Positions 18,124 through 60,819 of a stretch of DNA of 64,000 nt are shown piece by piece. The DNA is from Pseudomonadota bacterium (GTDB taxonomy: Bacteria > Pseudomonadota > Alphaproteobacteria > Sphingomonadales > Sphingomonadaceae), in contig JBCCBZ010000013.1 in assembly GCA_039033755.1 (NCBI GenBank), forward strand, positions 9,044-73,043, written 5' to 3'. The notes beneath the pieces were generated by a model. The model did no database searches, had not been told where the DNA came from, and worked only from the letters and a program-made list of their open reading frames with translations. Both the position numbers and the translations under genes were made by a program. Each line of letters starts with the position of its first letter. Positions within the stretch are counted from its first letter, which is position 1.

Positions 18124-18540
18124 TTGCCACAAGCACAGGCAAACCCGGCCACGCCCATAGGCGCGGCCACCAAGGCGCCGCCGGTCATGACGACTGACGC
18201 GCCGCACGAACTGCACGAACTGATCCTCGCCCAGTTGGACGACGATCAGGCGCAGGAAGTCGTCTCGATCCCGCTCGAAGGGAAAAGCTCGGTCGCCGAT
18301 TTCATGGTGATCGCGAGCGGCCGTTCGACCCGGCAAGTCGCGGCTATGGCGCAGAAACTGGCCGAAAAGGTCAAGCAAGCCGGCCACGGCCCCGCGCGCG
18401 TCGAAGGCCTCCCCGCCGCCGACTGGGTGCTGATCGATGCGGGCGACGTGGTCGTCCACCTGTTCCGCCCCGAAGTGCGCAGCTTCTACAACCTTGAACG
18501 CATGTGGTCGTTCGAGAGCGGAGAGGCCGCGGCGTCGTAA
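18124..18540 (+). CDS. rsfS: Ribosome silencing factor
   Basis: DFMVIASGRS, WVLIDAGDVVVHLF, YNLERMW. Start (TTG 18124 vs ATG 18188) uncertain. Confidence 0.93.
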   Translation: MPQAQANPATPIGAATKAPPVMTTDAPHELHELILAQLDDDQAQEVVSIPLEGKSSVADFMVIASGRSTRQVAAMAQKLAEKVKQAGHGPARVEGLPAADWVLIDAGDVVVHLFRPEVRSFYNLERMWSFESGEAAAS

Positions 18541-18832
18541 GTTTGCGCTCGCCCATCCGGGCGAGCGTCCTCGATGCTATTCCCTCCGGCCAATCTTGGC
18601 CTGCGGGGCATCTGCGGGCGGGCAGTCGCCCTTGCGAAATCGTAGATTTCGTCGTCGCGCTCCACCTCTCCGCATGGCTCCAAGACGCTTGGCGCTTGGT
18701 TGCCATCGGGGCGCGAGAGACGGGTTGCAACAGCAAACCGCAAGGCCAAGGGCCGCCCGCAGCGGGTCCGCAGGCGAAGATTCGCCGGAGGACGTCTAGC
18801 GAGGACGCACCCGCGGATGCGGGTGCGCAAAG
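18541..18832. repeat. Symmetric multi-hairpin palindromic element (two inverted ~110-nt units around a central hairpin)
   Basis: Left arm cgtcctcg..cctccggc[c]aatctt[g]gcctgcgg..ctgcgggcgg is the reverse complement of the right arm (18751-18807). Terminal hairpins have ATCC and GGAT loops. Ends are TTTGCGC and GCGCAAA. Confidence 0.85.
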
Positions 18833-18852
18833 CAAAACTCCGAGGAAAACGA

Positions 18853-19272
18853 ATGCTCCTCCACGTCATCGCTCGCGGAAAGATCGCTCGCTCACCGGAA
18901 GCGGACCTTGTCGCGCGCTATGAAAAGCGTTTGACTTGGCCGGTGAAACTCACCGAATTGCCCGAAACAGGCGGGCGCGTGCCTGATCCGGTAACCCCCT
19001 ATAAGACCGTGCTTTTGGATGAGCGCGGCAAGGCGATGGGTTCCGAAGACTTCGCGCATTTGCTGAGCCGGTGGCGCGACGATGGTGTGCGCGAGGCGCG
19101 CTTTGTCCTGGGCGCGGCGGATGGGCATTCGAAGGAAGAGCGTGCCGAAGCTGACCTTCTGCTCGCCTTTGGCCCGGCGACCTGGCCGCACCTGTTGGCG
19201 CGAGCAATGCTGATGGAACAGCTCTACCGCGCCACCGCCATCCTTGCCGGGCATCCCTATCATCGGGCATGA
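18853..19272 (+). CDS. rlmH: 23S rRNA (pseudouridine1915-N3)-methyltransferase
   Basis: LLDERG, FVLGAADG, TWPHLLARAMLMEQLYRA, GHPYHR. ATG 18853 behind GAGGA. Confidence 0.95.
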   Translation: MLLHVIARGKIARSPEADLVARYEKRLTWPVKLTELPETGGRVPDPVTPYKTVLLDERGKAMGSEDFAHLLSRWRDDGVREARFVLGAADGHSKEERAEADLLLAFGPATWPHLLARAMLMEQLYRATAILAGHPYHRA

Positions 19273-59244: not shown

Positions 59245-59916
59245 ATGACAAAACCCGAAAGCCTCAATGCGAGCCAGCTGGCCGACAGCCAGATACCTAC
59301 CGACGCGGAGCCGTTTGCGCTGTTTGACGCCTGGTTCGCCGAAGCGCAGGCCAGCGAGATCAACGATCCCAACGCCATGGCGCTGGCCACAGCGAACGCG
59401 AACGGCGTGCCTTCGGTAAGAATGGTGCTTTTGAAAGGGCACGGGATTAGTGAAGGCGCGGAGTACGGCGTTGAAGGCGGCGGATTCACCTTCTTCACCA
59501 ATATGGGCAGTCGTAAGGGCACCGATCTGGCAGAAAACCAGCAGGCCTCGATCCTGTTTCACTGGAAGAGCCTGCGCCGTCAGATCCGGGTGGAAGGCGA
59601 GTTGATCCAGGTCTCACCCGAACGCGCAGACGCCTATTTCCATTCACGCCCTTACAAGAGCCAGGTGGGATCGGCTGCAAGCCTGCAATCGCGTCCTTTG
59701 CCCGACCGACAGGTTTATCTCGACGCGGTGGAGACATTGCGGGCGGAACACGAAGAGGCGGGCGAAGTGCCGCGCCCCGACCACTGGACCGGCTTTACAC
59801 TGGCCGCGCGGTGTATCGAGTTCTGGATGGACCGCGACAACCGCTTGCACGACCGCCGCGTCTTTACCCGCGCGAGCGGCGTGGAGCCGTGGTCCGATAC
59901 GTTGCTTTATCCGTGA
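59245..59916 (+). CDS. pdxH: Pyridoxamine 5'-phosphate oxidase
   Basis: DPNAMALAT, RMVLLK, FFTN..SRKG, RQIRVEG, EFW..RLHDR. Confidence 0.95.
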   Translation: MTKPESLNASQLADSQIPTDAEPFALFDAWFAEAQASEINDPNAMALATANANGVPSVRMVLLKGHGISEGAEYGVEGGGFTFFTNMGSRKGTDLAENQQASILFHWKSLRRQIRVEGELIQVSPERADAYFHSRPYKSQVGSAASLQSRPLPDRQVYLDAVETLRAEHEEAGEVPRPDHWTGFTLAARCIEFWMDRDNRLHDRRVFTRASGVEPWSDTLLYP

Positions 59917-59931
59917 TAGAAGACATGGGCT

Positions 59932-60009
59932 CGAACCCAAACGGTTCGCAATGGCGACTGCCCGCCCGCAGCTGCACCGCAGCGCAGTGGAGGGAAAAGC
60001 AGCGAGGAC
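59932..60009 (-). repeat. Solo half copy of the 18.5-kb palindromic element
   Basis: Reverse complement gtcctcg.tgct.ttccctcc[..]ctgcgg.gca.ctgcgggcgggcagtcgcc.ttgcgaa..ttcg aligns with 18567-18651; 19-nt exact match. Confidence 0.85.
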
Positions 60010-60012
60010 ATT

Positions 60013-60819
60013 ATGAAGACCAAGCTCCCTTATTGGCACGTCGACGCGTTTAGCGCGGTGCCCTTTGGCGGCAATCAGGCCGCCGTCATGCTGCTGGACG
60101 AATGGTTACCGGACGATGTGCTGATAAAGATCGGGGCGGAGAACAACTTCGCCGAGACCGCCTTCTTGGTGCGCGATGAAAGCGGCGCCTCGGATTATGA
60201 GTTGCGCTGGTTCACGCCGACGAATGAGATCCGACTGTGCGGCCACGCCACTTTGGCAAGCGGGCACACGCTTCTTACGCACTTTGTCGATTACGCCGAA
60301 GCGCAGCGCGTGACGTTCCAGACGCGTGAATCGGGAATTCTCGAGGTGCGTCGATTGGGCGACGAATATGAAGTTGGCCTCCCCGCCATTGAGACGCATC
60401 GGGAAGATTGGGCGAAAGCGGCGGCGTGTCTTGGTGGATCGCCCAAGGAGATTTGGCGCAATCCGCTGGGCTATAACCTAGCGCTATACGAGGATGAGGC
60501 GGCGATCCGCGCGCTTGATCCCGACTTCAAGGCCTTGGCCGCTTTGGGCAATCACTTGTTCGTGTGCACCGCGCCGGGAATTGAGACGGACATTGTCAGT
60601 CGCGTCTTTGTCCCTTCGCACGGCATTGATGAGGATCCCGTCACCGGCGGCGCGCACGCCGTGCTGACTCCGTTCTGGAACAAGCGTTTTGGGCGCGACC
60701 AATTCACCGCTTATCAGGCGAGCGCGCGCGGTGGCTATCTAAGTTGCCGTCTGGATGGTCATCGTGTGTGGCTTGGCGGGCCCTGCGTGACCGTGGTCGA
60801 GGGGGCGTTCTTGCTCTGA
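60013..60819 (+). CDS. PhzF family epimerase/isomerase-like protein
   Basis: VDAF..GNQA, ETAF, LRWFTP..E..LCGHATL, EDPVTG. Confidence 0.92.
   Translation: MKTKLPYWHVDAFSAVPFGGNQAAVMLLDEWLPDDVLIKIGAENNFAETAFLVRDESGASDYELRWFTPTNEIRLCGHATLASGHTLLTHFVDYAEAQRVTFQTRESGILEVRRLGDEYEVGLPAIETHREDWAKAAACLGGSPKEIWRNPLGYNLALYEDEAAIRALDPDFKALAALGNHLFVCTAPGIETDIVSRVFVPSHGIDEDPVTGGAHAVLTPFWNKRFGRDQFTAYQASARGGYLSCRLDGHRVWLGGPCVTVVEGAFLL

Follow-up and report, generated by a model that had tools for sequence, protein, structure and literature searches.

A probable REPIN-like doublet in the rsfS-rlmH spacer belongs to a large, apparently undescribed palindromic repeat family of Erythrobacteraceae chromosomes

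The biology of the repetitive extragenic palindromes (REPs), of the bacterial interspersed mosaic elements (BIMEs) that they compose and of the REP doublets forming hairpins (REPINs) rests almost entirely on Gammaproteobacteria. Among the Alphaproteobacteria, the RIMEs of Rhizobium and the Bru-RS elements are intergenic mosaics with large palindromes and conserved inter-palindrome sequences. The MIRUs of Mycobacterium are repeats that lie in operons, exactly between one stop codon and the next start codon. According to Liang et al. 2015, as cited in PMC12306157, around half of the REPs annotated in E. coli have a stop codon no more than 15 nt away, and REPs with less than 16 nt between them and the stop stall terminating ribosomes and lower translation. 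Here, we analyzed a window of 64,000 nt (the whole stretch of DNA under study, from contig JBCCBZ010000013.1 of assembly GCA_039033755.1), in which the spacer between rsfS and rlmH is filled by a hairpin-rich element. This spacer is probably an inverted REPIN-like doublet of a palindromic repeat with modular build, which would place it among the REP/BIME/REPIN elements, acting at the level of DNA and copied in trans. The family to which it belongs is large, apparently undescribed, and specific to and abundant in the chromosomes of Erythrobacteraceae, while the kind itself is familiar. Its units are copied within genomes, lie flush with gene 3′ ends, are chromosomal and long-lived, and have constrained linkers.

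The element begins directly after the TAA stop codon of rsfS (last base 18540) and reaches to the ATG of rlmH (18853), which is where the initial annotation had placed it, and the spacer that it fills measures 312 nt, exactly 18541-18852. Two inverted arms of ~110 nt flank a unique centre of ~70 nt, and the ~110-nt arms proposed initially could be refined to a repeat unit of 105-110 nt, the T-rich lead included. The modules of the unit follow a fixed order in the family, namely T-rich lead, hairpin H1, TCCTCG, hairpin H2, CTGCGGGCG, hairpin H3, CTTGCG and hairpin H4, with H2 falling into length classes of about 17, 30 and 35 nt. All the hairpins and linkers listed in the initial annotation are present, and their positions are given below, together with the adjoining genes and the second copy in the window.

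18124..18540, plus strand: rsfS (ribosomal silencing factor), from the open reading frame (ORF) and codon-usage gene call; its TAA stop directly abuts the element.
18541..18545, plus strand: left lead GTTTG, a short version of the family lead TTTGTTTTK.
18546..18567, plus strand: terminal hairpin H1, CGCTCGCCC-atcc-GGGCGAGCG, with a perfect 9-bp stem.
18568..18573, plus strand: linker 1, TCCTCG, invariant in the family alignment; identity 0.85-0.98 at the orthologous site.
18574..18611, plus strand: H2 module, outer stem ATGC/GCAT, inner part CC-C-GGCCAA-tc-TTGGCC-G-GG, from the single-stranded DNA fold.
18612..18620, plus strand: linker 2, CTGCGGGCG (core), part of the family 19-mer; identity 0.85 at the orthologous site.
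18620..18631, plus strand: H3, GGGC-agtc-GCCC, its stem read directly from intergenic sequences.
18631..18636, plus strand: linker 3, CTTGCG, at least 90% conserved in two unit alignments; identity 0.89 at the orthologous site.
18635..18651, plus strand: H4, CGAAATC-gta-GATTTCG, the most variable module; identity 0.43 at the orthologous site.
18652..18720, no strand assigned: unique centre with a hairpin of its own (TCGCGCTCC/GGGGCGCGA, ATGGC/GCCAT, CCAAG/CTTGG); fold z -3.2.
18721..18838, minus strand: right arm, a complete unit; covariance-model match 18725-18834, 61.8 bits, E 5e-15. Its parts follow in plus-strand order.
18721-18740: H4′, CGGGTTGC-aaca-GCAAACCG, then CGCAAG.
18744-18754: H3′, GGCC-aag-GGCC.
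18754-18762: linker CGCCCGCAG.
18763-18799: H2′, with GGCGAA-ga-TTCGCC, then CGAGGA at 18800-18805.
18806-18827: H1′, CGCACCCGC-ggat-GCGGGTGCG.
18828-18838: A-rich tail CAAAGCAAAAC.
18839..18852, plus strand: ribosome-binding region of rlmH, GAGGA at 18842-18846, outside the big hairpin.
18853..19272, plus strand: rlmH, the gene downstream of the element, with its ATG start at 18853.
59925..60012, minus strand: second site in the window, a single unit without H1, found by BLAST and by the covariance model (61.5 bits, E 6e-15).

The long inverted arms 18583-18630/18744-18791 are 79% complementary, and the outer arms 18542-18573/18800-18831 are 81% complementary. The minimum free energy (MFE) of the whole spacer is -182 kcal/mol on either strand, compared with -135 +/- 6 for dinucleotide shuffles, which gives z-scores of -7.4 and -9.1, and none of the 100 shuffles folded equally well. 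Each arm by itself forms four successive single-stranded DNA hairpins (z -4.5 and -3.7), and the last 22 nt of the spacer, on the side of the rlmH ribosome-binding site (RBS), stay unpaired in the MFE structure. As had been reported initially, no transposase ORF was found near the window element in the ORF calls, and no target-site duplication was found at its ends, where the left flank closes with CGTCGTAA and the right flank opens with TCCGAGG. A role as terminator or promoter was ruled out, since no promoter-like or terminator-like site was detected within the window element and the T-run lies 5′ of H1, not 3′.

A total of ~195 units were collected in 1.28 Mb of sequence from ~150 Erythrobacteraceae genomes by merging nhmmer searches. 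The 19-mer CTGCGGGCGGGCAGTCGCC, which is common to both window copies, occurs in more than 118 stretches among the matches listed for species-representative genomes; nearly all of these are from Erythrobacteraceae (Erythrobacter, Qipengyuania, Porphyrobacter, Altererythrobacter, Aurantiacibacter and Parerythrobacter), with a few chance matches in Streptomyces. A covariance model built on 45 units gave 158 hits in 750 kb of the 19-mer loci. With the seeded copy excluded, additional independent sites recur about once per 30-45 kb, and the window itself holds two sites in 64 kb, so that some tens to ~100 sites per 3-Mb genome can be given as a rough figure, extrapolated from partial sequence. The depth of metagenome contigs on the window reaches up to 2800 on the arms and falls to 0-15 over the centre, from which it follows that the arms are multi-copy and the centre is single-copy.

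The searches for an earlier description of the family were negative. The best Rfam 15 match at the window element had an E-value of 1.4, far below the gathering score (searched with E up to 10), and no unit in 18 loci (~35 units) gave a hit at the gathering threshold. The literature search returned no paper with the core sequence or describing an Erythrobacteraceae repeat; no match to the window element or to the best-scoring unit was found in 72,556 plasmids and 50,697 phage records, and no blastn match to the element was found in 5,426 E. coli genomes. A scan with the degenerate core CCTCGCTNNNGCTGCGGGCG brought up almost only chance matches in high-GC genomes, with 4 of 120 extending beyond the core. 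Thus, the suggestion that the element might be undescribed stands, and so does its description as a non-autonomous, structure-constrained repeat family. The initial annotation had named an existing Rfam entry, a lack of further genomic copies and a lack of covariation as grounds for giving up the idea, and none of the three was found. The Rfam search also detected a suhB/mmgR small RNA (56.8 bits, L019:1293-1370) in an Erythrobacteraceae-like metagenome-assembled genome (MAG), which is unrelated to the repeat. Shorter repeats with the core TCCTCGCTnnnGCTGCGGGCGGGCAGTCGCCCTTGCG and an H4-like hairpin were observed in Hyphobacterium vulgare (L044:4940-5100) and in an Oceanicaulis MAG (L089:5960-6090), where they form tandems with a period of ~84 nt, the Oceanicaulis copies lying directly after a tRNA gene; on account of this core and hairpin, a related family exists in the Maricaulales.

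The stems of the family vary widely and their two sides change together. Double-sided compensations were observed in eight of the nine H1 pairs (45 units). In the units at the rsfS site (n = 46), 94% of the cells pair versus 72% after shuffling, and double-sided changes occur in 13 of 15 pairs (108 cells), which none of 500 shuffles matched; in slid-partner controls, pairing falls to 39-58%. As many as 83 distinct H1 stems were counted in 149 units, 57 distinct H2 stems, and 80 distinct H4 stems in 157 units, and the H1 loops stay CTCC, ATCC or GTCC. The outer stem of H2 covaries as GTGC/GCAC, GCGC/GCGC, GGGC/GCCC and CTGC/GCAG, and at rsfS sites as well as in right arms the H3 stem takes the forms GGGC/GCCC, GGCC/GGCC, GCCC/GGGC and GCGC/GCGC. 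In structured RNAs, G·U pairs abound on the transcribed strand. For the wobble count, hairpins were located by Watson-Crick pairs only, to avoid bias; 1436 of the stem positions are Watson-Crick pairs, and the 145 mismatches divide into 25 G·T, 41 A·C and 79 of other kinds. G·T is no commoner than the other mismatches, nor commoner on one strand than on the other. The stems therefore behave like DNA palindromes, with compensation by Watson-Crick pairs only and no G·U excess. Neither the G·U tolerance nor the single orientation of a structured RNA was observed in the units, and the Watson-Crick-only compensation together with the occurrence of both orientations favours a DNA-level palindrome over a strand-specific RNA.

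We retrieved 80 orthologous loci with RsfS, and in 68 of these relatives rlmH adjoins rsfS (tblastn with the RlmH protein). At least one unit is present at the rsfS site in 34 of the 80 loci; cultured carriers with an occupied site include Erythrobacter sp. SD-21, Aurantiacibacter luteus and Porphyrobacter sp. SLTP. By length, the spacers sort into three groups: the empty ones have 7-50 nt, those with one unit ~100-160 nt and those with a doublet 230-295 nt; empty spacers were found in Novosphingobium, Croceicoccus, Croceibacterium, Tsuneonella and Pelagerythrobacter, and in empty-site relatives rlmH starts 7-15 nt after rsfS. The usual occupant is a plus unit starting right at the rsfS stop, ~10 loci carry doublets, and two loci (L151 and L160) carry a minus unit alone, so plus-only, minus-only and double occupancy are all seen at this one site. 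The comparison of empty and filled sites that the initial annotation had called for yields empty, single and double states; the left arm is not a recent insertion, as it lies at the orthologous site in many genera. The window H1 stem CGCTCGCCC/GGGCGAGCG recurs at the rsfS site in Porphyrobacter and in several Erythrobacter loci, and other sites have other stems; because the same H1 stem is found at the orthologous site across genera, the left unit is old and vertically inherited. Across 24 orthologous units, identity to the window is 0.85-0.89 for the linkers, 0.74 for lead plus H1, 0.70 for H3, 0.60 for H2 and 0.43 for H4, compared with 0.62 at fourfold-degenerate sites of the neighbouring rsfS. 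The linkers and partly H1, with identities above the fourfold-site level, are thus constrained or homogenised, and H2 and H4 are not. In one relative, an unrelated palindromic repeat with arms CTTCGACAGGCTCAGCACGAG / CTCATCCTGAGCCTGTCGAAG fills the rsfS-rlmH spacer (L140:1784-1978), and the motif CGTCATTGCGAGCGTAGCGAAGCAATCCATGG of other palindromic repeat families was noticed at L008 (~2400-2470) and L116 (~130-250).

Copying within genomes was seen in Aurantiacibacter sp. D1-12, where the unrelated loci L059:2810-3065 and L083:1122-1387 are 93% identical along 267 nt. The left TCCTCG, the unique centre and everything up to the right tail are included in this common block, and the left H1 stems differ; the block ends exactly between the lead and TGA in one locus and between the lead and TAG in the other, with no repeat at the junctions. 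The difference in the left H1 may reflect either polar copying from the right end, independent H1 replacement or partial ectopic conversion. Elsewhere, whole doublets of the same genome share 86% identity over 247 nt and 83% over 206 nt. Newer units with leads of their own are nested directly after the H1-TCCTCGGYG of older ones at five loci (L138, L154, L103, L112 and L076). Compared with L119 (1918-2193), one of its two closest relatives, the interior of the window doublet (offsets 25-268) is inverted with the outer H1 kept, and compared with its closest relative L120 (1918-2195), only the centre and the two H4 hairpins are inverted, again with the outer H1 kept, and the left-arm H4 hairpin of the window occupies the opposite arm. 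These isomerised doublets look like products of flip-flop recombination between nested inverted repeats. The spacers at L123:1927-1975 and L152:1936-1985 contain a T-rich lead, one hairpin with a GGAT or TATT loop, reversed relative to the usual H1 loop, and an A-rich tail, followed by a Shine-Dalgarno sequence. Two palindromic H1 hairpins present direct repeats to each other, and such a single palindrome is the footprint expected if a doublet lost the sequence between them by deletion; a precursor state is possible as well.

The units are confined almost entirely to the spaces between genes, with 185 of 190 being intergenic according to a gene caller that scores codon log-likelihoods and had the loci as its training set. 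In terms of arrangement, 126 are single, 58 lie in H1-outward pairs (29 doublets), four in tandem and two in H1-inward pairs. Among 105 singles, 49 are co-directional and sense, 25 co-directional and antisense, 25 convergent and six divergent; units are kept out of promoter-bearing spacers. The H1 side is turned towards the 3′ end of a gene 74 times versus 31, and the H4 side has no preference (50 versus 55). Where it faces a stop codon, the H1 side lies at a median distance of 5.5 nt, with 50 of 74 within 9 nt, compared with a median of 36.5 nt for the H4 side (Mann-Whitney p 1e-8; 1e-6 when the independent seed loci are taken by themselves). In the position matrix of 116 units, T accounts for 66-83% over the stretch from -9 to -1 that leads up to H1; stop triplets, which may be TAA, TAG or TGA, peak ending at -9, exactly before the lead. 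The possibility that the stop codon is part of the element was ruled out; no stop-like triplet precedes the lead where H1 faces no gene end, and the stop therefore belongs to the gene. Where H1 faces a gene start, the outward sequence on the strand of that gene is AAAACAAAGGA, a Shine-Dalgarno sequence. One unit lies ~12 nt past the 3′ CCA of a tRNA (L095:5489-5685), so that placement follows gene 3′ ends in general and not stop codons alone.

The second unit in the window (59925-60012) separates pdxH, whose stop is at 59916, from a phzF-like gene that starts with the ATG at 60013, and has its H4 (GAACC-gttt-GGGTTC) ~10 nt past the pdxH stop. Its CGAGGA linker sits 4 nt before the phzF-like ATG and reads as a Shine-Dalgarno sequence, by which this copy shows co-option directly. 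In the hisB-hisH spacer (L005, L008, L081 and L090), a unit was observed in several species after hisB, which ends in GGGCAGCTTGGTGG plus the stop codon, and before hisH; this seems to be a second operon-internal site that is orthologously occupied. Head-to-tail tandem arrays of complete units were also encountered at L046:6821-7123 and L030:6694-6909, are rarer than inverted doublets, and have in L046 a 104-nt period with copies 97% identical.

We propose that the hairpins form in single-stranded DNA and that an enzyme acting in trans, with its gene elsewhere, would recognise the fixed linkers and may insert copies of units and doublets immediately behind genes; the obvious candidate for it is a transposase of the HUH/Y1 type. 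The resident doublet would then be transcribed within the nadD-rsfS-rlmH operon as a very stable structure. By analogy with the stop-proximal REPs of E. coli, H1, 5 nt past the rsfS stop, might hinder terminating ribosomes and protect the upstream mRNA on its 3′ side, and in this model rlmH may be uncoupled from rsfS and use its own unpaired RBS. Such effects on the transcript could explain why the linkers and H1 are conserved above synonymous sites.

Several observations weigh against an element of the REP/BIME/REPIN kind. No RayT-like ORF was found in the 1.28 Mb by motif regular expression or by tblastn with E. coli RayT (E up to 10), a search that is underpowered because it covered ~8 kb around each of 118 units; as a rough estimate, one flanked REP-associated tyrosine transposase (RAYT) per genome should have put ~2-3 RAYT-adjacent loci into this sequence. 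In the same 1.28 Mb, an ORF of transposase size is nowhere enclosed by a plus and a minus unit. RAYTs are reported to be rare in Alphaproteobacteria (PMC5581495). The GTAG of classical REPs is absent, with TTTGTTTTK before H1 and TCCTCG after it, and the orientation of units relative to GC skew is not significant (27 versus 17, p 0.17). Moreover, the conservation of linkers and H1, the 2:1 sense excess and the stop-flush placement also fit selection on the transcript.

These last points are the strength of a rather unlikely reading, in which the element is a cis-acting structured RNA of post-stop intercistronic position that sets mRNA 3′ stability or processing, or the behaviour of ribosomes at the termination site, with the H1 loop, linker 1 and H2 providing the functional sites through CCUCC-like anti-Shine-Dalgarno motifs, and with repetition arising from recruitment at many operons. 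It gains from the unit starts 0-9 nt from the stop in 50 of 74 cases, from the rsfS-site copies kept across genera (linkers 0.85-0.89 versus 0.62 at fourfold sites), from the occupation of hisB-hisH in several species, from the excess of sense (49) over antisense (25) units, from the strong covariation and from the presence of units in metatranscriptome contigs, which carry no strand or end information; the U-rich lead right after the stop presumably resembles an RNase E entry site, which we count in its favour too. However, G·U pairs are not enriched in the ~1580 scored stem positions, one third of the co-directional singles are antisense, and plus, minus or both units occur at one site. H2 and H4 change at the neutral rate or below it, the modules are swapped, flipped and nested, and neither the element nor the units of the 18 loci match Rfam. 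The near-identical copies at unrelated loci indicate copying and not independent recruitment. A function of the transcript and a replicator are not exclusive, and a REP-like replicator with acquired effects on mRNA is the usual picture for such families.

A classical MITE (miniature inverted-repeat transposable element), meaning an internally deleted insertion sequence (IS) with terminal inverted repeats that is moved by the DDE transposase of a full-length IS elsewhere, would account for a dispersed, non-coding doublet of ~300 bp with long terminal inverted repeats and for the copying of whole doublets within genomes. We consider it very unlikely, since one-ended half-elements dominate (126 singles versus 29 doublets), the window copy and the compared junctions carry no target-site duplication, the absence of unit pairs around a transposase-sized ORF counts here as well, and no copies were found on the plasmids or in the phages searched; covarying stems with fixed linkers are also not predicted by plain decay of terminal inverted repeats. 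No parent IS with matching terminal inverted repeats was found in 1.28 Mb. As for a chance feature of a GC-rich spacer or a local one-off palindrome, nothing except the high GC content (62% in the window) speaks for it, and it merits practically no credence in view of the fold z-scores of -7.4 and -9.1, the hundreds of homologous units in other genomes and the second copy within the window; core matches and covariance-model hits elsewhere already refute it. The initial annotation had left the choice between a REPIN- or MITE-like element and a structured RNA. On the grounds of Watson-Crick-only compensation, both orientations, a majority of half-elements and no target-site duplication, a DNA element of the REP/BIME/REPIN kind is favoured, and the IS-derived MITE and the structured RNA are disfavoured.

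A more specific version of the REPIN-like reading, which we regard as unlikely and offer tentatively, is a RAYT-free intragenomic replicator whose linkers are read by some other, possibly host-domesticated enzyme. Its placement behind stop codons and tRNA ends would be exact to the nucleotide. It would have persisted since before the split of Erythrobacter, Porphyrobacter and Qipengyuania because it came to serve as operon punctuation, adjusting how ribosomes stall near termination and how far neighbouring cistrons are uncoupled. If this were true, the core common to the Maricaulales genera Hyphobacterium and Oceanicaulis would point to an older alphaproteobacterial system.

The repeat family of the marine Erythrobacteraceae would provide an independent alphaproteobacterial system for a field built on Gammaproteobacteria, and it opens the questions of how the units are copied, why they lie flush with stop codons, and whether to regard them as parasites or as mRNA punctuation that the host has domesticated. 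For specialists, the four-hairpin unit with fixed linkers, the nucleotide-precise abutment on stop codons and the lack of a RAYT so far are the points of note. In practical terms, breaks in the assembly of Erythrobacteraceae MAGs and spikes in their depth are explained by the units, which also lengthen spacers in conserved operons (rsfS-rlmH and hisB-hisH) and can supply Shine-Dalgarno sequences to their neighbours, and a covariance model of the units would improve annotation.

Among the known systems, the MIRUs are direct tandem repeats with small ORFs in one orientation, whereas the window units are palindromic, non-coding and found in both orientations. The RIMEs and Bru-RS elements belong to a different host order and are likened to the window family by description only, as a lead. 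The resemblance to the REPIN/RAYT systems of Pseudomonas and enterobacteria is closer, as inverted units around a spacer give one long hairpin, doublets are duplicated as units and singles look like remnants or halves; as far as the available accounts of REPINs describe it, they are likewise chromosomal, absent from plasmids, vertically inherited and kept at orthologous sites over long times. The doublets of the window family differ in being ~250-300 nt long versus ~100 nt, with four hairpins in each half, and membership among the classical REPINs is not established, with GTAG absent and no RayT-like ORF found in the 1.28 Mb searched. With the REPs and BIMEs of E. coli and other enterobacteria, the family shares intergenic, high-copy imperfect palindromes that occur as singles, pairs and arrays, after genes and within operons, as well as inverted mosaics with conserved non-palindromic linkers and compensating stem changes. 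It differs from them in having no sequence similarity to E. coli, no GTAG and no RAYT found in the sequence searched, in a unit of roughly threefold length that strings together four hairpins by three fixed linkers, and in a terminal T-rich lead that abuts the stop codon with near-nucleotide precision.

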